IMG/VR virus record: IMGVR_UViG_3300008255_000115
Span: 35,193-99,192 of that record
Length of the DNA stretch: 64,000 nt
Origin: a virus
Reading direction: 5' to 3' (one strand)
Shown here: piece by piece, positions 5,701-28,947 of the stretch
Position numbering within the stretch: the first letter of the stretch is position 1
Layout: every line of letters begins with the position of its first letter
The notes under the pieces: model-generated
Told to the model about the DNA's origin: nothing
Databases searched by the model: none
Seen by the model: only the letters and a program-made list of their open reading frames with translations
Translations under genes and position numbers: made by a program

Positions 5701-6815
5701 TAGGTGGTCTTTTAAAAGATTTTGGAGTAGATAAAAGGTCACTTATGGAAAGTGATTTTGCTACATTTACTGCATTATTAAAACATCCTACAACACAGGT
5801 AATTAGAAATAAAGATAACACCATTAACATTAAAAGTCCTTATATATCTGGAGATATTAATCAGACTTATTCACTTGATGAAATAGAAATGCATAAAGGA
5901 TTTGAAAACATGTTTGATAGAATAGAAGAAAAGAGTGGGAAGATGAGAGCTGAATTTTTAAATATGGCACAAAATACTAAAGGAAAAAAAATGAGTGAAA
6001 CTCTTATGTTTCCACAAATATCAGGAAAATCTTCAGGAAACTTCAATTATAGTGTGCCTGTTATGAAAGACATTAATGTACAAGCAGGAAATCGTACACA
6101 AGAACATGCATTAGTATCTGAAACTTTAAATGAAATATCTACAATATATAATCAAGATTTAAGTCAATATGGTGTTAAACAAGGGGATAAGAATACTTTA
6201 GATTTGATTTTAAGTGAATTAAATGATGATACAAAAAAATACTCAACTGATAATCTTATGTTAAATATTGATGTAGAACCTGTTATGGGAAATATGGAAT
6301 TATCTAAAGTTACAGTTAAAATGCATCCTAGCACTAAACATAAATATTTAAAGCAAAAAGGATTATTAGTTTATGATTCTAAAGCTAAAGAATTAGATGA
6401 AAGATGGGTCTCTCTTATTGAAGACAATGCTACTTATTATATATCTAATGGTAAAGCTAAACTTATTAAAAATACACAACCAGATCCTTATCATACATTA
6501 GTTGGTCTAGCAGATGGAGAAGGTTATACAGATGATATATTTTGGGATGAGTTTGGAGGCAAAGTTGAATATAAAAGAGTAGGTGATAAGGTACAAATTA
6601 TTCCTATATATAAAGTTAAAGATCCAGTAACTGGGAAATTAAGAGAACTTAGAATAATGGGACCAAGTGGTCCTATGGAACAACCACTTGCAGGGGTTAA
6701 TTGGAAACAAATATTTGAAATGCAATATCAGAATATTTATGAATTACCCTTTAGAAATTTAGAATCTGATGTTAATCTTAACAGGATTACAAACTTAGAA
6801 CATTATAAAAAATAA
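2772..6815 (+). CDS. Large virion cargo/ejection protein (1347 aa)
   Basis: Long helical-looking ORF within the giant-gene block leading to the virion RNAP; no catalytic motif recognised. Confidence 0.6.
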   Translation: MATYLQGITDYIPQVQPFKPNYNFYQNVLERKQSQYDRGWEQTNNIYSSILNAPMMRGQNVERRDGFFKNIENQIQQLSGVDLSLQQNVDAATQIFKPFYEDDNIVHDMSFTKKYQTQMQHAEYLRNCTDKDKCGDKYWEGGVRLMNHIAQDFVNASDEEALKISAPNYVNHANFMEKASAAVKEAGFKMEYESKEGRYMVKRINGPQAVQPLMDFMMARFGDDPELTSFYKAKAALMSYENPEAAINTYEASMLRSKAQSQEEYDQLIKDKSAEINFNKAKGIINHTKENVKASTDRLFLQKSGLEKLIENEGIIEGSPEDKAYRAILEREGSAVAALESVDKLSNQVNNMQYTDSEGNVISKGAIDGVVANAMMMRDMSLSAQTIAYKDYSVTKKADQYALADYRNQLALKTAAIKHNYALETTNVKSILKEGQDYRKFLIDRGYINPFTGEPKYIDPVTQTMPILPGGGMATGDPADIAAALKQRIASGASLAPSSADNAYLYSNAGFTYKPSKNNPKKARLVEAMNGADVYLDTGLQTAIKNFPEALKPGIPKPSFTGKLEDGVLKLDHENVTPDTRIQEIISKGENGDVDGALLNFKFSEFIQPAKNIVSTWTEQAASNQGFIVGSQLNSLLNIASSQNDQYNAFALDGMIGIGNMIKENINNPAIKEALIKSGSYDLLKDFPNSTNTKNLDPDFFRKIADKSLSEDIMLAAGKRDLFKKFTNDQGQHFVKQYNSEDLVDINKLGLVSKEEADILNFRNSHAPMKPLSEEERKALKDYDYYTSQPKIDNDFRSIGLNTPIPALRDFSNKHLTQMALTENMYKAATNSKRNYNNQMIDASQTMAKSFENENTDFASKMLAESMVKIGKDGWAELTPLGVVYSKAAEKAPLPGGNSLWQLTKDIGIFNPFDGIYTSTVPELEKEYMGGVPGFTNEAIKNMLWSSELPIDKAPPRNLNREALWNNVDLSKLKGEVGGLLKDFGVDKRSLMESDFATFTALLKHPTTQVIRNKDNTINIKSPYISGDINQTYSLDEIEMHKGFENMFDRIEEKSGKMRAEFLNMAQNTKGKKMSETLMFPQISGKSSGNFNYSVPVMKDINVQAGNRTQEHALVSETLNEISTIYNQDLSQYGVKQGDKNTLDLILSELNDDTKKYSTDNLMLNIDVEPVMGNMELSKVTVKMHPSTKHKYLKQKGLLVYDSKAKELDERWVSLIEDNATYYISNGKAKLIKNTQPDPYHTLVGLADGEGYTDDIFWDEFGGKVEYKRVGDKVQIIPIYKVKDPVTGKLRELRIMGPSGPMEQPLAGVNWKQIFEMQYQNIYELPFRNLESDVNLNRITNLEHYKK

Positions 6816-6818
6816 GTT

Positions 6819-9800
6819 ATGCCAGAGAATATTATGCCTGAAACACCACAATTACCTGACACTACAGTAGATCCTGTAGTATCTAGTACACCTAATATTA
6901 GTGATATTAAGAATGAACTGTATAGTAATTTACAGACAGACATGGCTAAAGCTAGAGATCCTTATATGGCTGCTAAAGGAGAAGGTCATAACTTAGCTCC
7001 TACAAAAGATAATGGTTTAAATTTTCAAAGATACTATGGTAAAAAAGAATATACTAAGTTAGGATTTAATCCATATATAGATAATGAAAATTACTATCAA
7101 CAAAACACTTCTGCTTGGGATGATACAATTAACTCTTGGACACAAGCTGGTAATCTATTTAATTTAGGATTCAGTACAATATGGGGTGGTAAATCAGACA
7201 GAGAAGAAGCAAGAGATTATGAGAGATATGCTAATATAGGCACTAGCCAAAGAGGTGGTGTATCTGGATTTATGAACAATGCTATGTTAAATTCTGGATA
7301 TACAATAGGTCTATTATCAGAGATAGCAGCTGAAGAATTAGCATTAGGAGCAGTGGAATTTTTTTCAGGAGGTGGTACTACACCACTAGTAGCAGCAAGA
7401 ACTGCTGCTAATGTTAGCAGACTAGGTAAACTAGGACAAATAGGTAGTAAGATAACATCTACTGTTGATAGAATAAAAGATCTAAAAAATATAGGTAAAG
7501 CTAAAACTTTCTTTGAGGGAGCTAAATCAGTAGGACAAGCAATAAATCCATTAAGAGGGACCACAGAATATTTATCAACGGTTGGTAGACAATATACTAG
7601 ATCTAAGGATACTGGAAAAATTGTTGCTTTATCTGATATGGCTAAATGGCAAAAAGGTTTTGGTACTTTTTACAGAGACTTACGTGAGATAAATTTAGCT
7701 ATGGATGAAGCTCATCTAGAATCAGGTTTTGTTAGTAATGGAATTAAAGATGAATTAATCAATAAAGTTATTCAGGATACAGGTGAACATCCAACTGCTG
7801 AAGCAATGGATGAGATTAATAAAGAAGCAAAATTAGCTTCTGATAATACCTTTGCAACCAACTCTTTACTAATATATAGTACTAACAGGTTATCATTTGG
7901 AAATGTATTTAATAAGTACATGCCAAGAGCTTTACAAAAAGCTTCAAGTAATATGGCTGGTGGTAGAGTAATTAAAAATAGAGCTACTAAGAAATTAGAT
8001 TTTGTTGAACATGGTGGGCTACTAGGTTATAAAACATTTCTTAATGAAGCTAAATATGCTGCTTCTAATCTTAAGACTATGCCATTACAAACAGCTAAGT
8101 TTTTAGGAAAGTATACAAGAGCAAACTTTGGTGAGGGTGCTCAAGAATATTTTCAAGAAGTTATTCAGGATGCAGAAACTAATATGGCACATGATAGATA
8201 TACTGGAGCACTTTCAGGAGGAGCTTGGTATAATGCTTTATCTAGTGACCAATATATGAAAGCATATAAGGAAAGCATGGACCATTTTATAAGTTCTGAA
8301 GGTGCTGAAATATTTGCATCTGGATTTGTAATGGGAGGATTTGCTGGACCAATAGCATATGCTCAACAAAATGCTGTTAAACACTTAACAAAATCCGGAC
8401 AATATGTAGTGGACAAAGATGGTTATCAAGCTGATAAGTCTGAAGAAGAGCAAGCTAAGACTGATCTTGAAAAAAATATTACTAAGTTCAATGATATGAC
8501 AGATGCAAGAAAGAATTTCTTGTATGATTATATTGAACAATTAAGAACACAAGGTTCTCTTAAAAAAGAGATGGATCTAAAAGAAGATAATCAGAAAGAT
8601 ATAATAGATCTTAAAGATATAGCTTTAGTTCAACAGCTTATGTTTGCTGATAATATGGGAGCTTATGATTTAATTCTTGACAAAATTAAAGACATGAGTA
8701 ATTTATCAGAAGATGAATTAAGAGAAGCTTTTGGAGAACAAATAGATGAAGACAGTAATTTCATAAGTAACTTTAAAGACAGTTATGAAAAGATAATTAA
8801 AAGAGCAGAAAAAGTAAAAGAGATGATGGATAACTATGATAAGTTATTTCCTGAACCTCCTTTATATGGTGCTGAAAATAGTGATTTTGAAGATCTTATT
8901 GAAGAACAAGATATAAGAAAAGCTAGATATTATACTAAATTATTAGCAATAACTAATCAACAAAGTTTGGTTAGAACTATGGAAAGAATGAGTTCTATCA
9001 TGAATGGTGTTTATGAAAAAGCTCCTTTTTGGAATAAAGATAAAACTCCACCTGCTGGAGAAATAACTAAAATATTTAACTATACAGAACTATCACAAGA
9101 AGTAAGACTTCTAAAGGATGAAATCAAAAGCTTAAAAGGATTTACAAGTTTAAGCCCTGATCAAAGGAAAGATCTTGCATATAAAGAAAAAATTTATGCA
9201 ACACTTGAAAAGTTTACAGGTAAAGATGGTGTTCTTAAAGGATTTGTAAATGGTTTAAAAAATCAACAACTTGTAAATATATTAAGAAAACAAGCTGAAA
9301 AACTAAGAACTCTTGAAACAGGTAAATCTGTAACTTATAAAAGAGGAGGTAAATCATGGGAAGGAATTATTGAAGGTGAGACAATAGACAAAAAAGGAAG
9401 ACCTCAGTGGATGATTGTTAAATCTGATGGATCTAAAGTTAGAATTTTAAAAGATTCTGATGTACTGCAAGATCCTGGTATAGATGTGCCTGATATTGAA
9501 GATACTTATACTGAACCTTTAAAGCAATTATTTAGAGAATACTTGACAATAATAGGTAATAGATACAATAATAAAATAGATGAAACTAATTTTGATTCTG
9601 CATTCCAAGATTTTAAAGATTTTTATACTTTAAATGAAGATGAAAAAAATTTAAGTGAAACTGTTTCATTTTTAATGAATCCGGAAGCTCACTATATGTT
9701 TGTTGAAAGATATAACCAGATGGTTAAGAGTAAACGCACCAACATGGCTAGTGAAGTAGAAGCTCAACTAAAAATGTATCAAGACTCTAAAGAAGAGAAT

Positions 9801-11483
9801 GATCTTATCCAAATGCTTGCTAAAGAATATAATATTTATATTGAAGCAGATGATTTAGAAGCTCTATTTAAAGACAATATTATACCAGACATTTTTCATA
9901 ATATTGACACAGATGTTAAAATTAGACCAACTAGTGATACTTATAAAGAAATTAATACTGCTATAAAAAATTGGTTAGCAGAAACAAAAAGAGTTGAGCC
10001 TGAAATAATAACTGAGGAAGTAGTTAAGAAAACAACTGAAGAAGTAAGTGAGTTTAAAGAAATAACAATGGATACACCTATTGATGAATATCCTGCTGAA
10101 TTATCTTTATTAATGGAAGAAGCTATGAGTGCTTATAACAATGCTATAGATGAAAGAGAAAACTTATCTGATATGGCTAAAGAAAATGCTAAAGCAAAAA
10201 CATTAGAAGAGTTTATTAACAATCCTGGTGCTAAACCAAGAATAAGAAAAGTACTTGAAAAATGGAATGGTGAATCCCTAGTTAAACCAGTACAATCAAA
10301 TGAAAAAGAAGTAATTAATAAAACAATTATAACACCAGACGTAAAAGAAAATGCAGAAGAAAAAATTCAAGAAGTAATAATACCAGAAGGAGAAGTTCTT
10401 GATACAAATCTTGTTGACCCTAATGCTATTGATGAAAGAGAAATAGCACCAACTGTTGATATATTATTTCCAGATGAAATAAAACAATTACTTCTTAATA
10501 AAGAAATTAGATTTTTAATGCTTGGTGAAACAGATGGACAAACCCAACAGATTGTAAAAGCTTTACAAAAAAGTAAAAAACTTAGATCTAATCAAGGTAT
10601 TAAAGATATAAAAATGAATACCCAAATTGCTATACCTATTACTGTCAAGGGAAAGATTACAGAACTTGTATTTTCATATTCAGGTTTTGTAGACATTCAT
10701 GAAGCTGGTGGACAACACCAAATGATTATAGATATGAAGTTACAACCTAAGAAAACAAATGCTTTTCCACATGCTGTTAAAATAGGAAAAGATACATATT
10801 ATGCATCAAGTATAAATCATAAAGCATGGATAGAAGGTTCAGGTAAACTTCATAAATTTTCACTTAGACTTATTCAAGGCTCTGAACAAGTTGTAAATCA
10901 AGAAGATATAGATACAAAATGGACAAGTAGTATTCAAAAAAGATTTAGTGAATCAACAAACTTAGAAGATACCTTAATTGAATTACAGTCAGAAAATACT
11001 AAAAGAGAGATTGAAGGTAAAGCTTTTCTAGATACTGAAGATTTACATTTAATTTATGAAGATTTTGTTAAAAAGTTTCAAGGAGAACTAACTCCATCAA
11101 AACTAAACTTACAAGATGAGTATAATGTTAAGGGAAAATTACGTAAATTTGGCACTGCAAAAGTAAGTAAGAAGTATCCTAATGGTGTGGACTTTATATC
11201 TACAGGTAAGAAAACATTAGGTCAAGTTCAATTTATTAAAACTTCTGAAATACCAAGTGTTATACAAAATAAATTAACAACAGATATGGATGAAAAAATA
11301 TCAGAACAAGGTTTAGAAGAAGTAACTGAAACAGATAAGGAACTATTAAAGGACAGTACAGAGAATAGAGAAGCTCTTAGTAAAGATAAAATGGATGAGT
11401 TAGCAGATAAATCAGTTTCAATGACAGCTTCAGAAAGAATTCAATACTTAAAAGACAATAGAAAAAAACGCTGTAACCAATGA
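6819..11483 (+). CDS. Large ejection protein with Gly/Ala-rich hydrophobic segments, putative membrane channel former (1554 aa)
   Basis: Segments GYTIGLLSEIAAEELALGAVEFFSGGG and IFASGFVMGGFAGPIA, motif EGAQEYFQ; stop overlaps RNAP start (ATGA). Confidence 0.6.
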   Translation: MPENIMPETPQLPDTTVDPVVSSTPNISDIKNELYSNLQTDMAKARDPYMAAKGEGHNLAPTKDNGLNFQRYYGKKEYTKLGFNPYIDNENYYQQNTSAWDDTINSWTQAGNLFNLGFSTIWGGKSDREEARDYERYANIGTSQRGGVSGFMNNAMLNSGYTIGLLSEIAAEELALGAVEFFSGGGTTPLVAARTAANVSRLGKLGQIGSKITSTVDRIKDLKNIGKAKTFFEGAKSVGQAINPLRGTTEYLSTVGRQYTRSKDTGKIVALSDMAKWQKGFGTFYRDLREINLAMDEAHLESGFVSNGIKDELINKVIQDTGEHPTAEAMDEINKEAKLASDNTFATNSLLIYSTNRLSFGNVFNKYMPRALQKASSNMAGGRVIKNRATKKLDFVEHGGLLGYKTFLNEAKYAASNLKTMPLQTAKFLGKYTRANFGEGAQEYFQEVIQDAETNMAHDRYTGALSGGAWYNALSSDQYMKAYKESMDHFISSEGAEIFASGFVMGGFAGPIAYAQQNAVKHLTKSGQYVVDKDGYQADKSEEEQAKTDLEKNITKFNDMTDARKNFLYDYIEQLRTQGSLKKEMDLKEDNQKDIIDLKDIALVQQLMFADNMGAYDLILDKIKDMSNLSEDELREAFGEQIDEDSNFISNFKDSYEKIIKRAEKVKEMMDNYDKLFPEPPLYGAENSDFEDLIEEQDIRKARYYTKLLAITNQQSLVRTMERMSSIMNGVYEKAPFWNKDKTPPAGEITKIFNYTELSQEVRLLKDEIKSLKGFTSLSPDQRKDLAYKEKIYATLEKFTGKDGVLKGFVNGLKNQQLVNILRKQAEKLRTLETGKSVTYKRGGKSWEGIIEGETIDKKGRPQWMIVKSDGSKVRILKDSDVLQDPGIDVPDIEDTYTEPLKQLFREYLTIIGNRYNNKIDETNFDSAFQDFKDFYTLNEDEKNLSETVSFLMNPEAHYMFVERYNQMVKSKRTNMASEVEAQLKMYQDSKEENDLIQMLAKEYNIYIEADDLEALFKDNIIPDIFHNIDTDVKIRPTSDTYKEINTAIKNWLAETKRVEPEIITEEVVKKTTEEVSEFKEITMDTPIDEYPAELSLLMEEAMSAYNNAIDERENLSDMAKENAKAKTLEEFINNPGAKPRIRKVLEKWNGESLVKPVQSNEKEVINKTIITPDVKENAEEKIQEVIIPEGEVLDTNLVDPNAIDEREIAPTVDILFPDEIKQLLLNKEIRFLMLGETDGQTQQIVKALQKSKKLRSNQGIKDIKMNTQIAIPITVKGKITELVFSYSGFVDIHEAGGQHQMIIDMKLQPKKTNAFPHAVKIGKDTYYASSINHKAWIEGSGKLHKFSLRLIQGSEQVVNQEDIDTKWTSSIQKRFSESTNLEDTLIELQSENTKREIEGKAFLDTEDLHLIYEDFVKKFQGELTPSKLNLQDEYNVKGKLRKFGTAKVSKKYPNGVDFISTGKKTLGQVQFIKTSEIPSVIQNKLTTDMDEKISEQGLEEVTETDKELLKDSTENREALSKDKMDELADKSVSMTASERIQYLKDNRKKRCNQ

Positions 11484-14400
11484 ATTGTATATTAGATGGT
11501 TCTGATTATGAAGAGTTATTCATAATTGCTCATGGAGCATTAACAGATAGTAAAAATAATAATAAACCTTTTGATCTTAATCAAGAGATAAAAGATTTAT
11601 ATGAAGCTTTTAAAGATGACCAAGCTTATGCTATTGGATTAGTTCAAGCATATCCTTCTCAACTTGTTATGGCATTAACTCATACAAGAGAACTATCTAA
11701 ATATCATAGGTCTAAGGGGTTAACATTAGATTTACTAGAAGATCTTACAGATACTTTTGAAGATATAAATGCTGTATCTAAATACTTAAGTCCTGATCAA
11801 GCAGATAAAGAATCTATAGATGCCATTGATGACAGTATTAAAGACCAAGCTGAAAAACCAACTATATTACCTAAATTAACTCCTGATCAAATTGACAAGC
11901 AAACAGCTATACTAACAAATCTAGTTAAAGAATTTATCTTTAAAGGAGTATCTGGTATGGCTACTACAGGTCAACAAGCATTATTAGATCCTTCTGGTAA
12001 ATGGACACAAGAGAAAAATCCTGAATTAGATTTCTATTATAAGTTTTTTAAAGTATTTAATGAAGAATTTTTAGGTGTGCAAGATCCTGAGAAAGTAACT
12101 ATCAATGGACACACTGGCTTCAAATTGAAAATATTAAGTAAAACACAAATAGATATTGAGGTTGCTAAACCCTACGATCAGAGGCTTGTAAAAGGAGAAG
12201 AAGCATATCCTGCTGTAAGAGGTCAGGCTATTTATCATGGTGGAATAGCAGTTGCTGTAACAGACAATAATGGTGATGTATTATATTTTGATGAACATTA
12301 TAATGTAGTAGGTAAAAATAAAGGTGGTAAACCTATATATTATAATGTGAGGTTTATTAAAAAAGAAGGAGACACTTATACAACAGATAGTGATATACAA
12401 TCAGTTCAAGAAATGGCTAATAACTTAGGAATATCTCCTGAAGTTGCTCACTCATTACGTCAAGCTGAATTCAAAGCTTTATATGACTTAAGAAATTACA
12501 TCAATGAAAAGAGAAAAGAAAATAGTGTATTACTAAATATAACAGGTGTTAGTCAAGGTGTTCTTAATATAAGAAAAAATTTACCAACAGATATTGATAC
12601 TTCAATCAATTCAATTAATTGGGATAAATCTGATATTGATCTCAATATTAAAATTGCAAAAAGAGATGCCCCTGAAGCAGGTGAAAGAAAAGGTGGTTTA
12701 TATATAAGTATTCCTGGTCATAGATCTATACCAATACAAGCAAACAATTTGTCTCAAGAAGATATAGACAAGGTTCTTGATTTAATTTTGGATCCTAGTA
12801 TTACTGATGAAAATGGACTACCTATTACAGCAGATGTTAAAGTAAAACTTATTGAGTATATTATACTTACTGAAGATGGTTCTTTACAAGTAATGGATAG
12901 AAAAGGTAAATTCATTGCTTTATTTCAGGGTAAACAAATTACTCCAGAAATGAGACAAGAAATTAAAGACTTTCTAAATATAAAATATATTAATCCCAAT
13001 ACAGGACAACCAACTCAATATAATCATACAAGAGGTCAATATACATTTAAAGAGCCTACTGCAGGTAATATATTTGAAGAATTTACTATAAATGATGGTA
13101 AACTCATTAGAACGCCTATTGATTTAGAACAACATGTTGCTAATCATAGTAGTATGAAAATAATACCTAATACATTAGGTAAAGATAAAGTAATTACTTT
13201 TCTAAATGGTTACTTTACTTTTAATATAGATTCTCAAGATTCTAATAAAATAGAAAAACTCACCACTTCAAAAAAAGATACAAAAGAATCTACTACTGTA
13301 AAACTATATAGAGAAATTCCTGTATTAGATGTTAATGATATTATTACTCAAGAAGGAACAAAAGGAGCAGCCGTTTATAATAAAAAAGATAAAATAATTA
13401 AAGTTAATAGAAAACTACTTAAGGAAAAATATGCTCAGAAAGCATGGACTAATCCTAGAGAACTTACTGAAACATTAGATGGAAGAAATGTAAAATCTTT
13501 TGCTCAACCTTTACATGAAGATCAATTTCCAACATATGAACAGTTTGAACAATTTGTTATAGAGCATGAATATCAACATAGTCAATTAAGTAGAGCTCAG
13601 TTTCAAAAATCCAATCCTAATTCTACAAAAGGACAATATGAAACAGAAATAAATGATAGAGCATTATTTACTTTATCATTACATGATAATATTCCATTAT
13701 TTTTTTCAGGTAAAAATGATCTAGGGAACATTAATTCTAGTGAAGAAAACAATGAACCTCAAGAGAAAGTAAAAATATTTAAAAAGAATAATGTAGAAAT
13801 TAAAGATGATGATGGTCTAACTATGAACCGTATCATTCCGATGAAATCTCAACCAGAGCAAATAGCAGCAGCAAAAGAATGGTTTGATGCTTCTCCTCTT
13901 TCAAAACATATTAAATATAAAGAATTATTTAATGTTGTTAACTCTAATGCCTGGGCAGAGTTTATTAATGGAGGTATTAAATTATATGCTGGATCAGATT
14001 ATACAGTATTGTATCATGAAGCTTTCCATGCCTTTACACAACACTTCCTGTCTAAAGAACAAAAAGTAAAATTATATAAAGAAACAGCTATATTAGCTCA
14101 GGGTAAAAAAGCAATTAAAGATTATGCTAAATCTAAGAATGTATCAATAGATAAACTATCAGATTATCAAAAGTATTTAGCTATTGAAGAACTCTTAGCT
14201 GAAGGTTTTAGAGAATATGTTTTATCTGATGGTAAAGTATTAGGACAAAATCCTGTAAGTAATAGTATCTTTAGAAATATATTAGATTTCTTAAAAGAAC
14301 TTTTTGGAATTAAATTATCTCAATCACAAATAATTACAGATAAGGTTCTTCTTAATATAGAAGATTTATATGCACAGTTACATATAGGTAATATTAATAA

Positions 14401-20400: not shown

Positions 20401-22807
20401 AGATGCTTGGATATTTGACATTCAAGGTAATAAACAAGTATCTCCAATATTATTATTTTTAATTCAAGCTGGAGTGCCTTTCCGTACAGCTGTTTATTTT
20501 GTTTCTAATCCTCTTATTAAAGAATATGTTAAAGAGCAAATTATAGCTACAAGTCCGTTTGCAAAACCTAATAGAGAAAATCCTAAATCAATATCTTTTT
20601 ATAGAAATAAAGCTAAAATAAAAATATTTGATAGTATTAGGCTAGGTGGAGTAACCAGATTAAATGAACAAAACATAAGAATTATTGATGATAATAAACT
20701 TTATAAAACAACTCTTAATTTTACTAAGAATATAGAGTTTACTAAAGATAGTAATTATAATATTTCACAAGTAAGTTTATATGAGGCACAACATTCAAAA
20801 CAAGCTATAGCTGGATTTTTACATTATTTAGAATTAGAAGACCTTTCAAAAGGTGTAAGTAAATTAAAACTGACTCTTAACTATGACACAAGTAAATCTA
20901 ATAGTTTATTTGATGCTCAAATGATAGAGGCTAATTTAATAGAATTACAAACTCAAACAATGTTTCATCCTAAATTTATTAAAGCTATATTAGATGAATC
21001 ACCTATAGGTAGTTTTAGAATTGCTCCTTTTCAATTAGAATTATTTGGACCTTTATTTGAAATAAGAAACAACACAACACTTAATAACTTTTTAATTAAT
21101 AAGTTATCAGAAATGAAGAATATTAAAAAGATGGAAAATGTTTTTGGTACTACAGAAAGATATATTGAGGAATATCAAAATGATGTTGTTGTAAAGATCT
21201 TTACAGATAATCTTAAAAAATATAGAATTAGTGACACAACATATAAAGGTCATGAAGTTATAGGAACTAAAGATGAAAAACAGATATTTCCAAGAGGTGC
21301 TTTTTATTCAATTGAAAATAATAAAATATATATAGATAAGCAAACTCTTGATATGCAATATGAGCATGATTTGTATTCTAACAATTATAAGACTGGTACT
21401 ACTATTCTTAATATTGCTTTACGTGATATAACATATGGTAAACTTGATTTGGCTAAAGTACCTATTGAAGCATTTAAAACAAGTGAAAATTCTAGAGAAG
21501 AATACTATCATTTTGTTATTGAAAGAGAATACCAAAGAGCTCTTAATCCATTTGCTGAATTAAGTAAAACTCATTATTTTAAGTATAAATTTAATAAAAA
21601 TATAGAAAAATATAAAGGACTAATTAATTTAACAGGAGAAGAATTAACAAATGAATTACTTAAAAGAACCTACGAAGAGATCCTAAGAGACACTGCATTA
21701 GATAATATTATGAACTTCTGGAAGATATTTAAAAGTAAAAATACTTTTGCAGATCAACTTTATGAGTTAAAAGAAATGCATCCTAATCTTATGAAATATA
21801 ATATTGTAAAAGATTTGGTTATATCTGAAGCTACTAATAAAACAAAAACTTTAGAGGGAGAAGAAAAAGAATATATTATTTTTAAAAATATTGTATTAAG
21901 AGATAATAGAGTAACTGAAGATTTGTTTAACATTTACTATAATAATATGCTTAAGCTCTCTGATGCAAGTACTATTAGTATTTCCATTAGTAAAGATAAT
22001 ACTGAACAAGATTACATAGAAAATAAACGTGTATCTAAATTTTTCTCTAAATTACCTTTAGTGGCTTTCTTACAATCTGGATTAAATACTAAAGATAGTC
22101 TCTCCATTATGAGAGCTATGCCTACTGATGACATTGTTGCTATAGTTCAAGAAGAAGCTAAGTCATTTAAAATAACTGAAGATTTTTTAACTAATTTCAT
22201 GTATAAATTTAATTTCCAAAATAGAATTCAAAATATATCTGTAAGAAGAAGATTAAAAGATTATGTAACACAAGACTCAAATAATATTCCTAATAGACAA
22301 TTAGCTGAAGAACATGAAGAAAAAGACTTAATTATAGATCCACTAGATAGAAAAAGCTTAGAAACATTTATTAGTAACAATCCAAATGTTATCTTTGTAC
22401 TTGAAAGTTCTAATATTAATCCAGAGTTTGGTACAGGATCATTTAAAAATGATAACATTGTAACACTAGAACTTAAATCGGGAAAAGAAGCTATAGATAT
22501 GTCATTAGATAATATAGAAAAACTATCTAAAGCAGGTACACCAATAGCTTTTTTAAATAGAAGTATTGGATATGGTAGAATCCTTACTAAAAAGAATAAA
22601 AAAACAGGTCAAATGATTGACCAACAAATGTATGAGTATTTAACTACAGAATTATTTTCAAGATTTGGATATGAAAATTCATATAGTAGATCAGTTAATG
22701 AAATAAAAGAACTTATTCAAAAATCACAAGAAGTTAGTGACTTTGATTTGAACATATCCTTTGATGATCTTGCTGAAGCAAGAGAAAGATTAAATTGTAA
22801 ATTATAA
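11480..22807 (+). CDS. Virion-packaged single-chain two-barrel RNA polymerase (crAss-like/phi14:2 gp66 type) with inserted zincin and other domains (3775 aa)
   Basis: Catalytic GSDFDIDK (D codons from 19346), preceded by VGVRIPVQAHNSM; TGDAQGY and STQLR motifs; HExxH motifs HEYQH (about 13565) and HEAFH (about 14015). Confidence 0.9.
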   Translation: MNCILDGSDYEELFIIAHGALTDSKNNNKPFDLNQEIKDLYEAFKDDQAYAIGLVQAYPSQLVMALTHTRELSKYHRSKGLTLDLLEDLTDTFEDINAVSKYLSPDQADKESIDAIDDSIKDQAEKPTILPKLTPDQIDKQTAILTNLVKEFIFKGVSGMATTGQQALLDPSGKWTQEKNPELDFYYKFFKVFNEEFLGVQDPEKVTINGHTGFKLKILSKTQIDIEVAKPYDQRLVKGEEAYPAVRGQAIYHGGIAVAVTDNNGDVLYFDEHYNVVGKNKGGKPIYYNVRFIKKEGDTYTTDSDIQSVQEMANNLGISPEVAHSLRQAEFKALYDLRNYINEKRKENSVLLNITGVSQGVLNIRKNLPTDIDTSINSINWDKSDIDLNIKIAKRDAPEAGERKGGLYISIPGHRSIPIQANNLSQEDIDKVLDLILDPSITDENGLPITADVKVKLIEYIILTEDGSLQVMDRKGKFIALFQGKQITPEMRQEIKDFLNIKYINPNTGQPTQYNHTRGQYTFKEPTAGNIFEEFTINDGKLIRTPIDLEQHVANHSSMKIIPNTLGKDKVITFLNGYFTFNIDSQDSNKIEKLTTSKKDTKESTTVKLYREIPVLDVNDIITQEGTKGAAVYNKKDKIIKVNRKLLKEKYAQKAWTNPRELTETLDGRNVKSFAQPLHEDQFPTYEQFEQFVIEHEYQHSQLSRAQFQKSNPNSTKGQYETEINDRALFTLSLHDNIPLFFSGKNDLGNINSSEENNEPQEKVKIFKKNNVEIKDDDGLTMNRIIPMKSQPEQIAAAKEWFDASPLSKHIKYKELFNVVNSNAWAEFINGGIKLYAGSDYTVLYHEAFHAFTQHFLSKEQKVKLYKETAILAQGKKAIKDYAKSKNVSIDKLSDYQKYLAIEELLAEGFREYVLSDGKVLGQNPVSNSIFRNILDFLKELFGIKLSQSQIITDKVLLNIEDLYAQLHIGNINNYRPSVKNAYFGQGLYSTPSAVAGETTNINDQDALLLLQSIDGIISEYQDERNLQLQINSPGDTRYTSAIFTNPEKYLKEVYNIARNKFIDKYEEFNIKIEKANEEEKPILIERRNLLEDALTNFGDPNNPIKGGGLLAFHIKKSPYMSTYTKDLDREAFEKTEEDITATRYDIKGNELSKIDLASNRVSYLIKSIKKYDTDGNQVKNELDFPVLMELNETFGKIASIIGDNNNSPAEIRTVLLKAVSENPWVDALVRKLGPTLSPHHSVNDLWTGFWAAFYMSNQKLHQTMINEISDPKTRSKSYEVLTGYASAVFRQAERDFRSHFKISDHPNPFIIDNGVFGNKLDSKSILDKYKGKLYKREFEFLKDIGIPLTDTKDTREGLKNINLEYLLDKIEMLHIKNVPITDIIQSLRDPYIFKTATGEIHIKSESSNINKILGLEVKHSGNYSNASVLTAIGNVAYETSMMSTIAVQIKAINESETFQDLINIPYMSYLDYKNNPSVRASVRLRSLYEFDPNTQTFGKRRKDVIFTLDNLDGTQNIIDNSYTDKDYSSTTSKSDKYTRLMQDIYSLFLEGKPSGITPGDKSTILSANINTIYTEGNDKHLYVDLGDFGKKGGQVNLGIERAYNILLPYLEGELQRIIDVQKHQEESFLPNIEGYTSPDKNKNISGLDFSAFKGVFKKETKDKLLELYKATTNLKNIPSTLRTEMLKDMQEYFNFTTAQTKTTLDRMLFIDKNLAGLVEKGLGEVVNSIEVSNIILKAYTVNKFIHNLDDVTLFYGDLAQYKDLDKRGSALNSTGRMFRTDDDALSYVNDVLKRPYATKNKVNKYKKFDGTLETAILAEDIERSVFYEEYEETLKDANVSDEEIKRILKPYEKMETGDAQGYITFDSYRILSKLSNRWSDQQEALYQQEINDPNSVSKKNMLEYFPVRKYQYFGPLAVQGIHTTAFHKFSLLPLIPSVIKGRKLEELHNNMMNNGIDYATFKTGSKVGTVVAPGTIGGDKLYNTDKTIAPTKYTKNTIYLNYLKDQLDINSEYKEKVIFSTQLRALIEEGLIEGGVPVDFKPELSLDERVELWEKSPEETDLYKVYKKHEDNINKLIKFRKAELRKELGSTEEELTSGKGNMAKLVRFIQKELDRQDLADHEIDFIKEKDGKLVRDLSISPIASKIEKALNAIVNNRLVRQKVNGESLVQVTNSMWEPTSSSAEEKLSWGTKDLKTYRRDKSKQTLNSSQIYSQLGTKTQFENVVIDEVNGRKPAIKGNLTLTKKNLFTVKPVQSADKKAIIKASVATQYIGFGKGIDNSSTELYRQQAEQYANTGNYSSNDVIFVSIGGKRGDEQVRKKQQDKTIKEALKAIEAGATLITDNKNYVESSNYNEGEKRLAKNLESKGYNYSEKTINNQILGVWSKNQSSKPIVAYRTRGNNFLEALEKDNAIGNPWSHAGYSLYKTNTVKEAVEEFIAWMTGEKHTDKLQDYRQAIIDKIPEMKDKPILYYKDLREPSHATALDYLINKYDWNIQPSTSKTLGMDVKVALQGNFKNLIHLVHKDGKKVAIYNKRKKEDAQGNIIFTRELDSDATLERLNETIKDPEWRSNQDNLDMITMVGVRIPVQAHNSMEFMTVYEFLPERAGNIIVPPAEIVAKSGSDFDIDKLTIMMPSISIIGGIPEIIKEQTGDPVNKLKRTDQITEELKELRIKKSSIQEEVTAKFKEVSPKDLTEDDKAEIRIAHKYFDEEIGELKKELKTYENNVTLLTNMTNLNEEQQELLGRSWVGIDEVNKYIDIMETERRNTVNDIRQEMRQEKIDTIDTSKLKAISSAINKLEKEKNSLSGKALENNLMFTIRDILQLPINYINLFTPNDTSLVRPLAEQLSKNRDYNELDGVFGKTKTRDATKYLEPAYNISVHDRNAVGKDTLGLGAVDNKYNPIFNRIGMYMNPYYLKGIKKRLRRAIILMEHNTRQTEDGQRGISLSHLYDFNNENRIANVISQLMNGWVDVAKDAWIFDIQGNKQVSPILLFLIQAGVPFRTAVYFVSNPLIKEYVKEQIIATSPFAKPNRENPKSISFYRNKAKIKIFDSIRLGGVTRLNEQNIRIIDDNKLYKTTLNFTKNIEFTKDSNYNISQVSLYEAQHSKQAIAGFLHYLELEDLSKGVSKLKLTLNYDTSKSNSLFDAQMIEANLIELQTQTMFHPKFIKAILDESPIGSFRIAPFQLELFGPLFEIRNNTTLNNFLINKLSEMKNIKKMENVFGTTERYIEEYQNDVVVKIFTDNLKKYRISDTTYKGHEVIGTKDEKQIFPRGAFYSIENNKIYIDKQTLDMQYEHDLYSNNYKTGTTILNIALRDITYGKLDLAKVPIEAFKTSENSREEYYHFVIEREYQRALNPFAELSKTHYFKYKFNKNIEKYKGLINLTGEELTNELLKRTYEEILRDTALDNIMNFWKIFKSKNTFADQLYELKEMHPNLMKYNIVKDLVISEATNKTKTLEGEEKEYIIFKNIVLRDNRVTEDLFNIYYNNMLKLSDASTISISISKDNTEQDYIENKRVSKFFSKLPLVAFLQSGLNTKDSLSIMRAMPTDDIVAIVQEEAKSFKITEDFLTNFMYKFNFQNRIQNISVRRRLKDYVTQDSNNIPNRQLAEEHEEKDLIIDPLDRKSLETFISNNPNVIFVLESSNINPEFGTGSFKNDNIVTLELKSGKEAIDMSLDNIEKLSKAGTPIAFLNRSIGYGRILTKKNKKTGQMIDQQMYEYLTTELFSRFGYENSYSRSVNEIKELIQKSQEVSDFDLNISFDDLAEARERLNCKL

Positions 22808-22809
22808 TT

Positions 22810-25800
22810 ATGAGCTGTCAATTAAGAAACAATGAAGATGGTACTTATACTGTTAGTGCACCTAATGGTGAAGAATCTATTTTATTTAACCAAATAACTA
22901 ATCTTCCTGAGATTGAGAATGAACATCAAGCTGTACAAGCTTGGATTAAAGTTTATACAAAAAGTTTTAAAGACTGGTATGGTTTAGATTGGGAAATTAT
23001 TTCAAAGACAGAAAAAGATAAGTTGATAAAGGCAGGATTCTTAGATCAAAATGGAGAACCTGTTATATTCTATAGAGGTGATTACACAGGTTTGGAATCA
23101 TTTAATTATTCAGATAATGTAGGTAAATTTGGACAAGGCATTTATCTAGCTCAAAATAAAGCTCAAGCAGAAGCATTTGCTAGTCAAACAAATAGAAAAG
23201 TATATCCTGTCTTTTTAAAACCGGGTAAGTTTAAAGTATTTAAAAACATAACAGAATTTAAAAGACAAGCTGCTGAATTTAATAAAACTAAATATGTACC
23301 AACTATTCAACAAATAAAAAATTATGTAGATACTTTACATAGTGATGACATTACAATAGTAGGTACTGGATTATTAGGAAAAGAATTCAACACAGCAAAA
23401 AAAGAGAATGTTAAATCTATTTTCTCAGAAGGTTTTATGTTAACTCTTAAGTATTTTGATCCATTATTACCAACACAAACTTTCAATGAAGATTTTCAAA
23501 AAACACAAAAAAGTGAAAGCTTTATCAGTGAGATGATCTTAAGATTACAAAATAATTTAGGATTAAGTTCTGAAGATATTCAGCTCATTACTAAAGAGGA
23601 TGCTTTACTAATAACAAATAAAGCAAAGAATCCTTATAAAGATCAAGCAGGATTTTTTTATGAGGGTAAAGTTTATCTTGTAAAAGGTAAAATTACACCT
23701 GAAACAGTATTTCATGAATTTGCACATCCTCTTATAAAAGCTATATCTAAAGATAACAATAAACTTTTCAACAGAATATACCAGGACATTATTCAAGATT
23801 CACAAGGACAACAGTTTCTAGCAGAAGCTATATCAGAAAATCCTGAGTTAGATCCTACAAATGAGCAAATTAAAGAAGAGGTTATAGTTAAAGCTATGAC
23901 ATATGCTGCAAAAAATTCAGATATGGTAGATCCTGTAGTACAACCCTCTAAAGGATTAATTGCTGCACTTAAGAAATTATTTTATGCTATTAAACAGATA
24001 TTACGTAATATATCTAAAGGACCCACAAAAGTAGAAAACTTATCTTCTACTACTACTGTTGAAGAATTGGCAAATATGCTAATGAATAAACAATGGAACA
24101 TAAACATGAACATTGTAAAAGATTCAGATATTGTAGCATATATAAACGAACATAAAGAAAGGATAGAAGAATTAAATCAAAGAGCAAATAGTAAAGAAAG
24201 TATGGCAGCATATTATACTCTTCTTAAAGAAGCTGGTTCTATATATAGAAATCAACTTCAAGCTATGTTAGAATCAGAACACTATGATGAATTAGCAATA
24301 GTACTATCTGATGAGACTGGACAATTAGATGTAGAAGCTATTAAAAGAAATATAGGAGATCTTGTAAACGATACATCTATTATAAAAAAACAAGTAACAA
24401 GACATACAAGATTAGTTAATAGTAAAACTGACCAAGAAAAAATAGCAACTAAAGCTCAAAATGAACATGAAGAAACTCTTGAATTTGAAAGAAGAGTAAC
24501 TGCATTATCTCTTAATATAATTACTATAGATGATCAAGTAAAAAGAATTAAAAAACATATTGTTTCATTAGCACAAGAACCAGATCAAAAAACTGCATTT
24601 AAACAGTTAGCATTCTATGTAAAACAATTAAAAGCTTGGAATGAACATTTAGAGAACTTTGATAAAGAGGCTAATAAAGCAAACCTAGAAACTGATAATC
24701 CTGTAAGACAAGACATTAATAGTATTCTTAAAAATATTAAAGACACTGAAAATAATATAGAAAAAATATATGAAAATACCTTATCAGAAACATTTTCTGA
24801 AATATTTGATAACTTAACCATAAATGTAACTAAAAAACAAGAAGCTCTTATAAAAGAATATAAAGAAAAAATACAAAAAGGAGGAGATAAGAAATATCTT
24901 GAAAAATTAATTAAAGAAGCTGAAGAAGAAATAGAAAGAGTACAAGTACCAAAAGAAAAAATGCTTAAATATCTTACTGGACAAATGGGTGATATAGGGT
25001 TTTTACATAGTCAATTTGAAAACTTTATATCTAGTCAAGATCCTTCAATATCGAGTTTTGCTGCATATATAAAAGATAATCATACTAAAGTTAATGGTAA
25101 ACTTCATAACAAGCTTAATAGCTTTTTAACAGAACTTGGACCTTTACTTAAAGAATTTGGTATAACTCCTCAACAACTTAGTAAATTCCGTAAAGAGTTT
25201 GCTTTTATAGATAAGAGTACAAGAAGAAATGACAAAGGTGAATTAGAGGATTATCAGATCTATACATTCTTTAATGAGTATCAGAACTATAAACATACTC
25301 TTGCTATTTTAAATGATAAGATACAAGAAGCTAAAGACAATTGGATAGATGACCCATCTACAGAAAAATTACTTAAACTTAATGAATTAAATTCAATTAA
25401 AGATGAGCATATAAAATATTATTTTCGTAAACAATATATAGATGAATACTATCATGCTGATGATATGTTGGAATCAACTGAGTTAGGTAGAGAAGCAAAA
25501 GGAGAAATAGATGATATATTAAGTGAAATAAGAGATTGGCAGAATGTACATCCTGATGCCACAGAGATCTATGAAGACTTTGAAACAGTTGAAGTACTAT
25601 GGAAAGACTATAAAAAGAAATTTTCATTATATGATGATTTTGGTCTTAAAAAAACTGGTGATGAACTTAAAAAAGCTGAATTACTTAAAGAAAATAGAGA
25701 TGCTAAAAGAAAATTTCATAAATATACTATAATACCTGGAGCTTTTGAAGGAGCTTTAAAAGCATTTGAAGTTAAGCTTGTTGCAAGTCTACAGCATGAA

Positions 25801-28800
25801 GGACTACAAGAAGAAGATCCAAGGTTCACTGAGGAATATAATAGAAGAAGAACCTTATGGATAGACAGGAATACTCATACTAAAATATCAGATGAATTTT
25901 ATCAGGTTAGAGAAAAAATTTATAAAAAAATAGCAAACATAATGTCTCATGTAGATAAAGGCGTTGATACTAGTTTAGAATTAGAAGCTATACTTAATTC
26001 TTTACAAGGAAGAAGAGATGAAGATGGCCAACCTATTGGTACAGAAATGACTGATGAGATGCTTAAAAATATAAAAGATCTTGAGCAAAAAATTGAGAAC
26101 AGTAAGCAAAATGTTATAGGATCTAGTGGATTAACAAAAATAGAAGGAGCAGAACTAGCTTCTTACTATAATATAATGGCTGAAGGAAAATTATCAAAAG
26201 GCCAACTAATTAGGTTTAAACAACTTAAGGATAAAAAAACTAAGTTAGGATTATCTAAAGCACAAAGATCAGAATTATTTTCACTCTTTGGATTTTTAAC
26301 TACATTACAATATAGTGTACCAACAGATTATTATATAGATGTACTAAACAATTTTTATAGAAATATAAAAGAAGCTTCTGGTCAAGAAAATCCTGAAGAA
26401 ATAACACATGATAATATTGATAGATTTTTACAACCTTCAGTGTTAGTTCCATTATTTAGTCAAAGTCCTAAATTTGAAAAATGGTTTAAGGACAATCATA
26501 TTCTTAAAAATGTATTTGATTATGATATAAATGATGTGGTAGAAGTATATCAAAGAACTAAAGCATGGTCAGTTATAAAACCAGGTAATTCTAAATACAT
26601 AGAAAAAACAGAGATATATGATAAAGATGGAACTTTGATTGAAACAATAAATGGTGTACCTAATATGAAGTTTCAAAGACGTGAAGTATTAGATAAATAT
26701 CATACTGGATATGATCCTAAAACAGGAGAAATAAATAAACTTGCTCATTATAATATTCAAGGTTATCAACTTCCTAAGACTTTAGAAGAGATGGAAATGA
26801 TAAAAAATAAATATGGTGCTGAGTTAACAGCACACAATGAAAAATTAGCAACAGTATTAGGACAAGGTATACCTTATGATTATTATATTAACAGAGAATA
26901 CCTTAATATGAAAAAAGAAAATTCTACTAGGTTTCAAATATTAGAAAAACTTAGAAGATTTCATTATGAGTCACAAGAAGGTCTTGATAGAGGGGCCGTA
27001 TTAGGAGATGAAATGCCTAGACAAAGAAAAGACAAGTATGAATACCTTACATCAGGAACAGCAAAAGAAGATGCTGTAAGCAAAGGTGAACAAATTATGA
27101 AAGGTATTACTCAATTTTTAGGTAAAAAAAGAGATGACTTTGAAGAAGGTTTAAATGCTGAAGAATCAGAATTATTAATTGGTACAGATGCTTATAATGA
27201 AATTAAGGGTAGTAAAATACCAATTAGAGGAAGATATAATTTAGATCTAGGTCAGGTTTCTGAAGATATTACATCTGCTATTTTTACATATTATCAATCA
27301 GCAGAACAAAATAAACTTCTTAAAGAAATGCAACCTATGGCTGAAGCTATGAAACAACTAGCTAACAATCAACCATTAGAAATGAATAATATTAATCATG
27401 GTATATTATCTGCAGCTCAACATGCTATCAACAATATTACTGGAAGAAAGAGTCAGAATAATAGACGTAAAGAAGTTATAGATGGTATGGTTGAAATTAT
27501 TTTTGAAGGTAAAAAACTCAAAACAGGACATAATAATCCTACATTAGTTAAAATGACTAATAATGCATTAGCTTTATCTTCTCATTCTTTCTTTGCTTTT
27601 GATATTACTTCTGCTATGAAAAACTTTTTAGGTGCTCAGTTTCAAATTGCCTTAGAAGGAGCTGGCAAAAAATACTATTCTTATAGTAATTGGCATAGAG
27701 GTAGACCATGGGCATTTAAAGCAATGGCCCAAATTTCACAACAGGTATATGCTCAAGAAGCTAAAAGTTTAGATATTCAAATTATTGACATATTTGATGC
27801 AATACAAGGTAGGTTTGAAGAAAAATTTGGAGAATCTGTTTCAAGATCTATCACTAGAGATACTGCTAATTTACAGTGGAGTACATCTCATAGAAAATGG
27901 TTAGAATCAGAAGCAACACTTCAACTATTTTCTGCTATAATGCATGACAGAACTGTAGAACAAATTCAACCTGATGGAACTACTAAGAAGTTAAGATATA
28001 TTAATGCTTGGGAGTTAGATCCTAAAACTAGATCTATAAAACTCAAAGAAGGTATAGATTCTAAATGGGATATAGGAGGAAAGGAGTTTAATAAAGTATA
28101 TAAAGAAAATCATGAAGTATCTAATTTACTTCAAGGAGCTTATGCTGGATTTGATCAACCACTTGTTACAAGACATATTATGTTCAGAATGGTAGGATCC
28201 ATGAGAAAATATTTTACTAAAATGTTACTTCATAGATATGGTGCAAGAGGTATAGGTCTATGGCCTACTCAATGGTTTCATGCTAAAGCTAGGTATAATC
28301 TAGCTACTAGTGATATGCATCTTGGATTTTATTGGCAAAATATGATTACTTTAAGAAAAATAGTAGAAAGTGGTTTTAAGCATATTATGTATATGTCTCC
28401 AGAAGAAACTAGAGCTCTTAAGATGGGAGCTTTAGAATTACTTAAATTACAATTATTTACATTAGCTTATTTTTGGATCTTTGGATTTGATCCAGGAGAT
28501 GATGAAAAGTGGAAAAAACTTAAAGACAAGTCAGGAGCCTTACCTACAATGATAACTGATGACCAATGGTCAGAAAATTTTAAACTTGGAGGATGGTTAG
28601 AAAATCATATATTACTTCTTATGATGCATGTAGAAGCAGAGAATGAACATTTTGTTCCTATGCCTGGATATGGACTATCAGATATGTATCAAGTAATTGG
28701 AGGTGAAGCTTCAATTGCAGCTGGAGGTTCATATAAACCAATCCTAGATCTTCTTTCTACTTTATTTTTTGTAATGACCGGTAATGAAAAAATATATTAT

Positions 28801-28947
28801 AAAAAAGACACAGGAGCTCTTAATATACAACAAGAAGGAGAAAACAAATTTTGGAGAAAGTTTTATAGATTAGGAGGAGTAAGTGGTAAATTTATAGATC
28901 CTGCTACTTCACTTAAGAACTTCTATCAACAGAGAGAAAGAAATTAA
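22810..28947 (+). CDS. Large polyvalent ejection protein with N-terminal ART-PolyVal-like ADP-ribosyltransferase and zincin domain (2045 aa)
   Basis: FKDWYG..DW...LDQNGEPVIFYRG...FGQGIYL...AEAFA...VYPVFL resembles the ART-PolyVal pattern; HEFAHP followed by EEVIV is a zincin signature. Confidence 0.7.
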   Translation: MSCQLRNNEDGTYTVSAPNGEESILFNQITNLPEIENEHQAVQAWIKVYTKSFKDWYGLDWEIISKTEKDKLIKAGFLDQNGEPVIFYRGDYTGLESFNYSDNVGKFGQGIYLAQNKAQAEAFASQTNRKVYPVFLKPGKFKVFKNITEFKRQAAEFNKTKYVPTIQQIKNYVDTLHSDDITIVGTGLLGKEFNTAKKENVKSIFSEGFMLTLKYFDPLLPTQTFNEDFQKTQKSESFISEMILRLQNNLGLSSEDIQLITKEDALLITNKAKNPYKDQAGFFYEGKVYLVKGKITPETVFHEFAHPLIKAISKDNNKLFNRIYQDIIQDSQGQQFLAEAISENPELDPTNEQIKEEVIVKAMTYAAKNSDMVDPVVQPSKGLIAALKKLFYAIKQILRNISKGPTKVENLSSTTTVEELANMLMNKQWNINMNIVKDSDIVAYINEHKERIEELNQRANSKESMAAYYTLLKEAGSIYRNQLQAMLESEHYDELAIVLSDETGQLDVEAIKRNIGDLVNDTSIIKKQVTRHTRLVNSKTDQEKIATKAQNEHEETLEFERRVTALSLNIITIDDQVKRIKKHIVSLAQEPDQKTAFKQLAFYVKQLKAWNEHLENFDKEANKANLETDNPVRQDINSILKNIKDTENNIEKIYENTLSETFSEIFDNLTINVTKKQEALIKEYKEKIQKGGDKKYLEKLIKEAEEEIERVQVPKEKMLKYLTGQMGDIGFLHSQFENFISSQDPSISSFAAYIKDNHTKVNGKLHNKLNSFLTELGPLLKEFGITPQQLSKFRKEFAFIDKSTRRNDKGELEDYQIYTFFNEYQNYKHTLAILNDKIQEAKDNWIDDPSTEKLLKLNELNSIKDEHIKYYFRKQYIDEYYHADDMLESTELGREAKGEIDDILSEIRDWQNVHPDATEIYEDFETVEVLWKDYKKKFSLYDDFGLKKTGDELKKAELLKENRDAKRKFHKYTIIPGAFEGALKAFEVKLVASLQHEGLQEEDPRFTEEYNRRRTLWIDRNTHTKISDEFYQVREKIYKKIANIMSHVDKGVDTSLELEAILNSLQGRRDEDGQPIGTEMTDEMLKNIKDLEQKIENSKQNVIGSSGLTKIEGAELASYYNIMAEGKLSKGQLIRFKQLKDKKTKLGLSKAQRSELFSLFGFLTTLQYSVPTDYYIDVLNNFYRNIKEASGQENPEEITHDNIDRFLQPSVLVPLFSQSPKFEKWFKDNHILKNVFDYDINDVVEVYQRTKAWSVIKPGNSKYIEKTEIYDKDGTLIETINGVPNMKFQRREVLDKYHTGYDPKTGEINKLAHYNIQGYQLPKTLEEMEMIKNKYGAELTAHNEKLATVLGQGIPYDYYINREYLNMKKENSTRFQILEKLRRFHYESQEGLDRGAVLGDEMPRQRKDKYEYLTSGTAKEDAVSKGEQIMKGITQFLGKKRDDFEEGLNAEESELLIGTDAYNEIKGSKIPIRGRYNLDLGQVSEDITSAIFTYYQSAEQNKLLKEMQPMAEAMKQLANNQPLEMNNINHGILSAAQHAINNITGRKSQNNRRKEVIDGMVEIIFEGKKLKTGHNNPTLVKMTNNALALSSHSFFAFDITSAMKNFLGAQFQIALEGAGKKYYSYSNWHRGRPWAFKAMAQISQQVYAQEAKSLDIQIIDIFDAIQGRFEEKFGESVSRSITRDTANLQWSTSHRKWLESEATLQLFSAIMHDRTVEQIQPDGTTKKLRYINAWELDPKTRSIKLKEGIDSKWDIGGKEFNKVYKENHEVSNLLQGAYAGFDQPLVTRHIMFRMVGSMRKYFTKMLLHRYGARGIGLWPTQWFHAKARYNLATSDMHLGFYWQNMITLRKIVESGFKHIMYMSPEETRALKMGALELLKLQLFTLAYFWIFGFDPGDDEKWKKLKDKSGALPTMITDDQWSENFKLGGWLENHILLLMMHVEAENEHFVPMPGYGLSDMYQVIGGEASIAAGGSYKPILDLLSTLFFVMTGNEKIYYKKDTGALNIQQEGENKFWRKFYRLGGVSGKFIDPATSLKNFYQQRERN

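Follow-up and report, generated by a model that had tools for sequence, protein, structure and literature searches.

How do crassviruses pack RNA polymerase proteins of nearly a megadalton and then pass them, in order, through a narrow tail? The phages that are most abundant in the human gut belong to this group. The question is raised here by three adjacent giant genes, g1, g2 and g3, of an uncultured groundwater phage known from the 99,192-bp IMG/VR record IMGVR_UViG_3300008255_000115. The DNA analysed, which we call the window, is the 64,000 nucleotides (nt) at bases 35193-99192 of that record (G+C 28%). The genome is 83%-complete and its DNA was found again in aquifer and groundwater metagenomes; the sequencing runs listed with it included none of RNA. 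The three proteins are almost devoid of cysteine, and the few cysteines that they have lie at the ends that face a neighbouring protein. We describe the evidence that these facing cysteines are paired, and suggest that the proteins are probably joined head-to-tail through them.

Cysteine content of three giant cargo proteins

The features on which the argument rests are all on the + strand and are listed here by their positions in the window.

6819..11483, + strand: g1, open reading frame (ORF) of 1554 amino acids (aa; 176 kDa), gp47-like RNA polymerase-associated cargo protein and putative first link, with no N-terminal Cys
11472..11474, + strand: TGT codon of g1 Cys1552, third residue from the C-terminus (RCNQ, then stop), invariant column C1547 in alignment A2
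11480..22807, + strand: g2, ORF of 3775 aa (432 kDa), virion RNA polymerase catalytic protein (like gp50 and phi14:2 g066) and putative middle link, with Cys at both ends
11486..11488, + strand: TGT codon of g2 Cys3 (MNC), invariant C3 in alignment A1
14015..14029, + strand: g2 HExxH motif (H846, E847, H850), zincin-like, in the N-terminal domain, invariant columns in A1
19346..19360, + strand: g2 DxDxD RNA polymerase catalytic motif (D2623, D2625, D2627), invariant columns in A1
22796..22798, + strand: TGT codon of g2 Cys3773, third residue from the C-terminus (NCKL, then stop), invariant C3773 in A1
22810..28947, + strand: g3, ORF of 2045 aa (237 kDa), gp49-like RNA polymerase-associated cargo protein and putative last link, with no C-terminal Cys
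22816..22818, + strand: TGT codon of g3 Cys3 (MSC)
23044..23283, + strand: g3 ART-PolyVal (ADP-ribosyltransferase) domain, residues 79-158 (Pfam PF18760, E 1e-7, above the curated cut-off)
23713..23727, + strand: g3 HExxH motif (H302, E303, H306), zincin-like, invariant columns in alignment A3

A computed count gives exactly four cysteines, all encoded by TGT, in the 7374 residues of g1, g2 and g3. Each is the third residue from a facing end; the N-terminus of g1 and the C-terminus of g3 have none. At the rate of the genome's minus-strand genes (1.19%) about 87 cysteines would be expected, and the probability of finding four or fewer is approximately 3e-32. Four cysteines placed at random would all lie no more than three residues from the four facing ends with a probability of approximately 7e-12. 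The start of g2 overlaps the stop of g1 (ATGA), g2 and g3 are separated by 2 nt, and the sequence AATTGTA is present at both junctions.

A preliminary description of this DNA, made by eye, had listed the same three ORFs with cysteine codons at 11472, 11486, 22796 and 22816. These are exact, and no internal cysteine had been missed. It had also stated that cysteines are found only at ends that face a neighbour, which holds within g1-g3 but not as a whole rule, because a 523-aa cargo protein, described below, has a conserved Cys5 with no facing partner. A DUF4326-like insert that it had remarked on could not be reproduced: Pfam gave no DUF4326 in g1-g3 at E values up to 5, nor any match to this family elsewhere in the 99-kb genome.

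Profile comparisons identify the three products, at the level of sequence, as the crassvirus cargo proteins, that is the RNA polymerase and two partners. The g1 family profile matches crAss001 gp47 (E 1.4e-18), the g2 profile matches phi14:2 g066 (E 1.2e-50, a protein also matched by tblastn) and crAss001 gp50 (E 5.4e-39), and the g3 profile matches crAss001 gp49 (E 7.1e-22). Tblastn of g1 and g3 against phage records found nothing, nor did single-protein scans of viral_contigs or a PDB sequence search with g2, g3 and the g1 profile. The same 99-kb record encodes proteins that match PF23898 (Crass_capsid) and PF25731 (crAss_MUZ) above their cut-offs, a portal that matches phrog_6547 (crass portal) and a terminase, placing the phage in a Crassvirales context. 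The HExxH motifs of g2 and g3 and the ART-PolyVal domain of g3 are candidate co-injected enzymatic effectors.

Conservation of the terminal cysteines and changes of gene architecture

The pattern is conserved in distant relatives. Exactly one cysteine, located in the last three residues, was found in 33 of 35 g1 homologues (24-100% identity, 1448-2716 aa). Among the 120 g2 homologues listed, which range from 2.2 to 5.5 thousand aa and from 27 to 100% identity, most have two cysteines and no more: the first lies at position 3-6 and the second falls within the last 1-8 residues. In alignment A1 both positions are as invariant as the catalytic DxDxD motif. A single cysteine at position 3-4 is present in 22 of 27 g3 homologues and a C-terminal cysteine in none of the 27. 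The terminal cysteines persist down to 23-27% identity. Across 345 distinct relatives (980,208 residues) there are 543 cysteines, almost all at these ends; the N-terminal one is at positions 3-6 and never at 2, and the C-terminal one is mostly at -1 to -5, within a range of -1 to -11. Among the exceptional homologues, P0115, P0124, P0145 and P0148 have no C-terminal cysteine and P0178 has no cysteine at all; some of these may be truncated gene calls.

The pattern is also present in two cultured phages. In crAss001, gp47 has a sole cysteine at -3, gp50 has Cys5 and a cysteine at -9 in addition to one internal cysteine, and gp49 has a sole Cys5. In phi14:2, g067 has a cysteine at -1, g066 has Cys3 and a cysteine at -2, and g065 has Cys3.

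Co-occurrence in neighbouring genes was scored at loci recovered by a profile scan of IMG/VR (75 loci, 73 of them distinct, with 10-kb flanks). Neighbouring + strand ORFs of at least 400 aa were treated as pairs, counting an upstream cysteine no more than 12 residues from the C-terminus and a downstream cysteine no more than 10 residues from the N-terminus. The 73 distinct loci gave 183 neighbour pairs, of which 127 have both cysteines, 56 have neither and none has only one. Chain members at these loci have 258 terminal versus 27 internal cysteines in 509,735 residues. When ORFs down to 120 aa were included, discordant pairs were found only at small genes inserted between chain genes or at small ORFs outside the chain. 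The inserted genes encode a GIY-YIG homing endonuclease (L062:11711-13050 and L076:10024-10641) or a ferritin-like protein (L067:19819-20316), and the chain proteins on either side of them retain their terminal cysteines. Eight pairs separated by gaps of more than 150 nt still have both. Additionally, crAss001 keeps the terminal cysteines although gp47 is encoded on the + strand and its partners gp50 and gp49 approximately 11 kb away on the - strand. Because the cysteines are kept on opposite strands in crAss001 and across inserted genes, they do not act as a signal at the DNA level.

The pairs with both cysteines are largely inherited and are not independent of each other; there are perhaps 5-7 truly independent events. 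The informative cases are therefore those in which the gene architecture has changed. At three loci an extra stand-alone protein is located between g2 and g3 (L035, 583 aa; L052, 655 aa; L076, 506 aa), and each of these link proteins has a cysteine at both ends. Homologues of these proteins occur in other phages as modules fused to the N-terminus of g3 or the C-terminus of g2. The close sisters L066 (g2 74% identical) and L060 (58%) lack the link proteins. The opposite change is seen where genes are fused. At L073 a full g1 (profile positions 131-1647) and g2 are in one frame, with a single cysteine in more than 4554 aa; the L059 protein has one cysteine in 4665 aa; and L067 has no cysteine at the expected junction. 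Single proteins occupy the position of g2 and g3 in p-crAssphage (gp44, 4070 aa, annotated in its record as the catalytic subunit fused to another RNA polymerase subunit) and in cr271_1 (gp48, 4620 aa). Both keep the N-terminal cysteine, which faces a cysteine at -2 of the preceding protein, and neither has a C-terminal cysteine.

In a tree made with hmmalign and FastTree, in which the deep branches are unreliable, no fewer than two to three events are needed for the three gains of a link protein. Long branches lead to the deep fusions, which may therefore share a single origin.

In cr108_1 (gp054/gp053, L082:12936-24526) the polymerase is annotated as two coding sequences, broken exactly inside DxDxD with a gap of approximately 290 nt, and there is no cysteine at either new end. 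An intron or a break in the annotation would account for this better than a genuine split of the protein.

The preliminary description had proposed that the terminal cysteines join the three proteins, by disulfide or metal bridges, into one thread that would be ejected sequentially and released by reduction, and had suggested looking for co-occurrence of C-terminal cysteines with N-terminal cysteines of the next gene and for their loss on gene fusion. Both are seen, with no exception in 183 neighbour pairs, junction cysteines absent from fused proteins and link proteins carrying both. The interpretation is partly supported, by the lack of internal cysteines, by co-occurrence, by the behaviour at fusions and splits and by a precedent in cyanopodophage A4 (see below); its DUF4326 remark and the restriction of cysteines to facing ends as a whole rule are the parts that fell away.

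A putative disulfide chain and its alternatives

Taken together, the pairing of the facing terminal cysteines is well supported. The best explanation, and in our judgement the probable one, is that g1, g2 and g3 are joined head-to-tail by terminal disulfides. Cys1552 of g1 would pair with Cys3 of g2, and Cys3773 of g2 with Cys3 of g3. From this we infer the chemistry of the bond in crassviruses and the time of its formation, as well as ordered ejection and reductive release. The bond would most likely be a disulfide that forms once the particle is assembled or released, making one unbranched N-to-C thread of 7374 residues (845 kDa) from three separately translated proteins. A head-to-tail chain would explain why these proteins are otherwise free of cysteine, since the removal of all other cysteines would prevent wrong or branching cross-links. 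With the cysteines 1-10 residues from the ends, the thread would be linear enough for the tail channel and have no loops unable to pass. It may keep the partners together and in equal numbers, each C-terminus may pull the next N-terminus into the channel at ejection, and the thiol reductants of the host cytoplasm may then free the subunits. In this way the tether would supply both the order of ejection and the equal numbers of partners. Fusion by a peptide bond would be equivalent to the disulfide link, which would explain why the junction cysteines are absent from fused proteins.

A wider proposal is more tentative. The separately made polymerase and its partners may be stitched into a pseudo-polyprotein, ejected in a fixed N-to-C order and unstitched by host reductants, so that delivery and activation would be gated by redox state. 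Further links may be present in crassviruses where extra effector modules are inserted, and such an arrangement may have arisen independently in cyanopodophage A4.

Several points weigh against a disulfide chain. We know of no biochemical or structural observation of the bond in any crassvirus. The cytoplasm is reducing at the time of assembly and the habitats (an aquifer here, the gut for crAss001) may be anoxic, which would leave the oxidant and the timing unexplained. No thioredoxin or Erv1-type oxidase was found in the 83%-complete genome; the Erv1 search also matched no control genome and is therefore uninformative. The small number of independent events has been mentioned above. The purge of internal cysteines is looser in the Intestiviridae, where the last giant protein has 7-14 of them. 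Finally, there are terminal cysteines that face nothing. The 523-aa cargo protein (genome 33522-35093; L003:13522-15093) is encoded approximately 1.7 kb upstream of where the window begins; its sole cysteine is Cys5, part of the motif MKKKCRVYK, and the neighbouring proteins have no cysteine facing it, the preceding one being Cys-free. Cys5 is the only cysteine in most of 55 homologues, the others having Val there, and four metagenome loci show the protein with the same genes around it; a search of viral_contigs with the family alignment found nothing. Similarly, gp47 of p-crAssphage has a lone cysteine at -2. These two cases suggest that a terminal cysteine can have other partners, such as itself or a tail protein.

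It is because of such unpaired cysteines that one alternative stays alive, at a low level. The terminal cysteine could be an anchor that binds a cysteine of the portal, tail or muzzle, the same cysteine of a second copy (a homodimer) or a cofactor. The conserved Cys5 of the 523-aa protein and the lone cysteine of p-crAssphage gp47 would suit an anchor, as would the Cys-rich, disulfide-bonded tail and muzzle proteins of crassviruses, but an anchor leaves unexplained why a cysteine is never seen at the outer ends, the N-terminus of g1 and the C-terminus of g3, and why facing cysteines are lost together at fusions and present together at splits, with 0 of 183 pairs discordant. We therefore think it unlikely. 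A facing pair held by a metal ion that bridges the two cysteines (Cu(I), Zn, or Fe with further ligands, for instance) or by other thiol chemistry would give the same co-occurrence, which speaks for pairing and not for chemistry, and both g2 and g3 bear metal-binding HExxH motifs elsewhere in the protein. This too seems rather unlikely, given that each partner has one cysteine with no conserved His, Cys or Asp adjoining it and that the position of the cysteine drifts (3 to 6; -1 to -11), as would be expected of a flexible disulfide more than of a defined metal site. Additionally, the only solved example of the signature, in A4, is a disulfide.

It is also improbable that the Cys-free state merely reflects the avoidance of cysteine known from N4-like phages, whose ejected proteins pass through the periplasm, with the terminal cysteines as tolerated leftovers or with separate roles (packaging or a degradation signal). 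Suppression of cysteine in ejected proteins, explained by the periplasm, is documented in the Schitoviridae (PMC11445570), but the N4-type proteins have no cysteine at all, whereas the terminal cysteines here remain invariant down to 23-27% identity and follow each break between genes. The invariance and the tracking of gene breaks therefore point to positive selection rather than tolerance. There is, lastly, next to no chance that the TGT codons are a nucleotide signal at the junctions (for translational coupling or a promoter), or a product of coincidence or of a start-codon artefact. The abutting genes and the AATTGTA shared by both junctions in the window would be in keeping with a signal; against it, the cysteines are kept with crAss001 gp47 and gp50 on opposite strands, across inserts and across gaps of more than 150 nt, their distance to the start or stop varies while always remaining in frame, and chance has a probability of approximately 1e-11. 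The nucleotide-motif and chance readings were rejected on the strand arrangement in crAss001, the pairs with inserts or gaps and the chance probability. Intein-like or ligation chemistry was also considered and has no support, as the few terminal residues carry no catalytic module.

The cargo block and comparison with known systems

The giant genes are part of a Cys-poor cargo block that begins directly behind the muzzle gene and ends with g3. It has 7 cysteines in 10,462 residues (0.067%), compared with 1.6% for the remaining genes; in the tail-fibre block the figure is 3-7%. The latter, Cys-rich block (genome 16372-27749, L002/L003, outside the window) is upstream of the muzzle gene and of the nearly Cys-free cargo block, so that there is a sharp contrast in cysteine content inside one virion module. 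Upstream of g1 in the window are gA and gB.

1..2713, + strand: gA, 933-aa Cys-free cargo protein, starting 88 nt before the window
2772..6815, + strand: gB, 1347-aa Cys-poor cargo protein upstream of the chain, with C128 and C134 (a CX5C pair) as its sole cysteines, neither of them terminal

Proteins at the gB position in related loci share the N-terminal motif MATY[IL]QG and have 0, 2 or 4 internal cysteines and no terminal one. The close pair of gB (window 3153-3173) is comparable with lone pairs in crAss001 gp45 (C390/C398), phi14:2 g069 (C369/C378), cr271_1 gp44 (C337/C347) and A-4L gp28 (C1036/C1039), and such pairs may represent a further conserved thiol feature among ejection proteins. 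PHROGs gave no match for gA, gB, g1 or g3.

Three other genes of the record were observed in passing. The large terminase (1094 aa; L002:5152-8436, in the genome outside the window) bears an insert with a LAGLIDADG domain that also matches families which often host inteins (DnaB-loader, primase, RNR), and on these two grounds the insert is probably an intein. The replication-side module contains a PARP-catalytic-domain protein (window 56966-58210, - strand; PF00644, E 1e-15) and a DUF2201 metallopeptidase/VWA protein (window 42390-43568, - strand).

A conserved tether that can be read from sequence would be a concrete mechanism for the packing and ordered passage of these polymerase proteins, testable in two cultured phages, and it would also account for the Cys-free state of the cargo. 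It would provide a rule for annotation, in which terminal cysteines mark membership and order in an ejected chain among giant proteins and flag inserted modules, such as the ADP-ribosyltransferase domain, as co-delivered effectors. A full-text search of the literature found no paper that mentions these cysteines in crassviruses; they are not mentioned in the crAss001 atlas (PMC10172136).

The closest known counterparts are in the cultured crassviruses. The crAss001 proteins gp47/gp50/gp49 and the phi14:2 proteins g067/g066/g065 are homologous to g1/g2/g3 and have the same cysteine pattern. Mass spectrometry detected gp47, gp49 and gp50 in crAss001 virions, where they are stored as 'cargo' together with gp45 and gp46, and several disulfides are present in the tail (PMC10172136). 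The three phi14:2 proteins are likewise found in virions by mass spectrometry. Packaging has thus been seen in both cultured phages; the phage described here is uncultured. It also differs from crAss001 in that gp50 has one internal cysteine and the genes are on two strands, and g1-g3 are larger than their cultured counterparts, with extra domains (HExxH, ART-PolyVal). Ejection from N- to C-terminus was proposed for gp45 in the crAss001 atlas, where order was said to be 'likely' due to packing and mutual interactions (PMC10172136).

In the Schitoviridae, suppression of cysteine in ejected proteins (N4 gp50, DEV gp71-gp73) was attributed to passage through the periplasm (PMC11445570). The likeness is that a giant virion RNA polymerase and ejection proteins have near-zero cysteine in a normal proteome (0.067% versus 1.6% here). 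In the N4-type proteins, however, cysteine is wholly absent, termini included, while four conserved terminal cysteines are found here. To our knowledge no tethering has been proposed for the N4-type ejected proteins. The N4 and phi14:2 polymerases have been described as fundamentally distinct in global structure, with a common origin left open.

The nearest precedent for the bond itself is the pre-ejectosome of cyanopodophage A4, in which a disulfide linking Cys1715 of gp27 to Cys5 of gp26 was seen in the virion by cryo-electron microscopy (PMC12002296; PNAS 2025). In the Anabaena phage A-4L record (KF356198), Cys1715 is the sole cysteine of gp27 (1717 aa) and Cys5 that of gp26 (1114 aa). Profiles of g1, g2 and g3 gave only negative or near-zero bit scores against A4L_26 to A4L_29, so no homology is detectable. 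The arrangement is nevertheless alike: the upstream giant ejection protein has its sole cysteine third from the C-terminus and the next protein has its sole cysteine near the N-terminus. In A4 there is one link, between two proteins of a pentameric pre-ejectosome that has no RNA polymerase, whereas here there would be two or more links in series through the RNA polymerase, and in many relatives the rule follows the fusion and splitting of genes. Disulfide-linked ejection proteins purged of cysteine were therefore already known; what is new here is the putative serial chain that includes a virion RNA polymerase, with terminal cysteines that follow the fusions and splits of its members.

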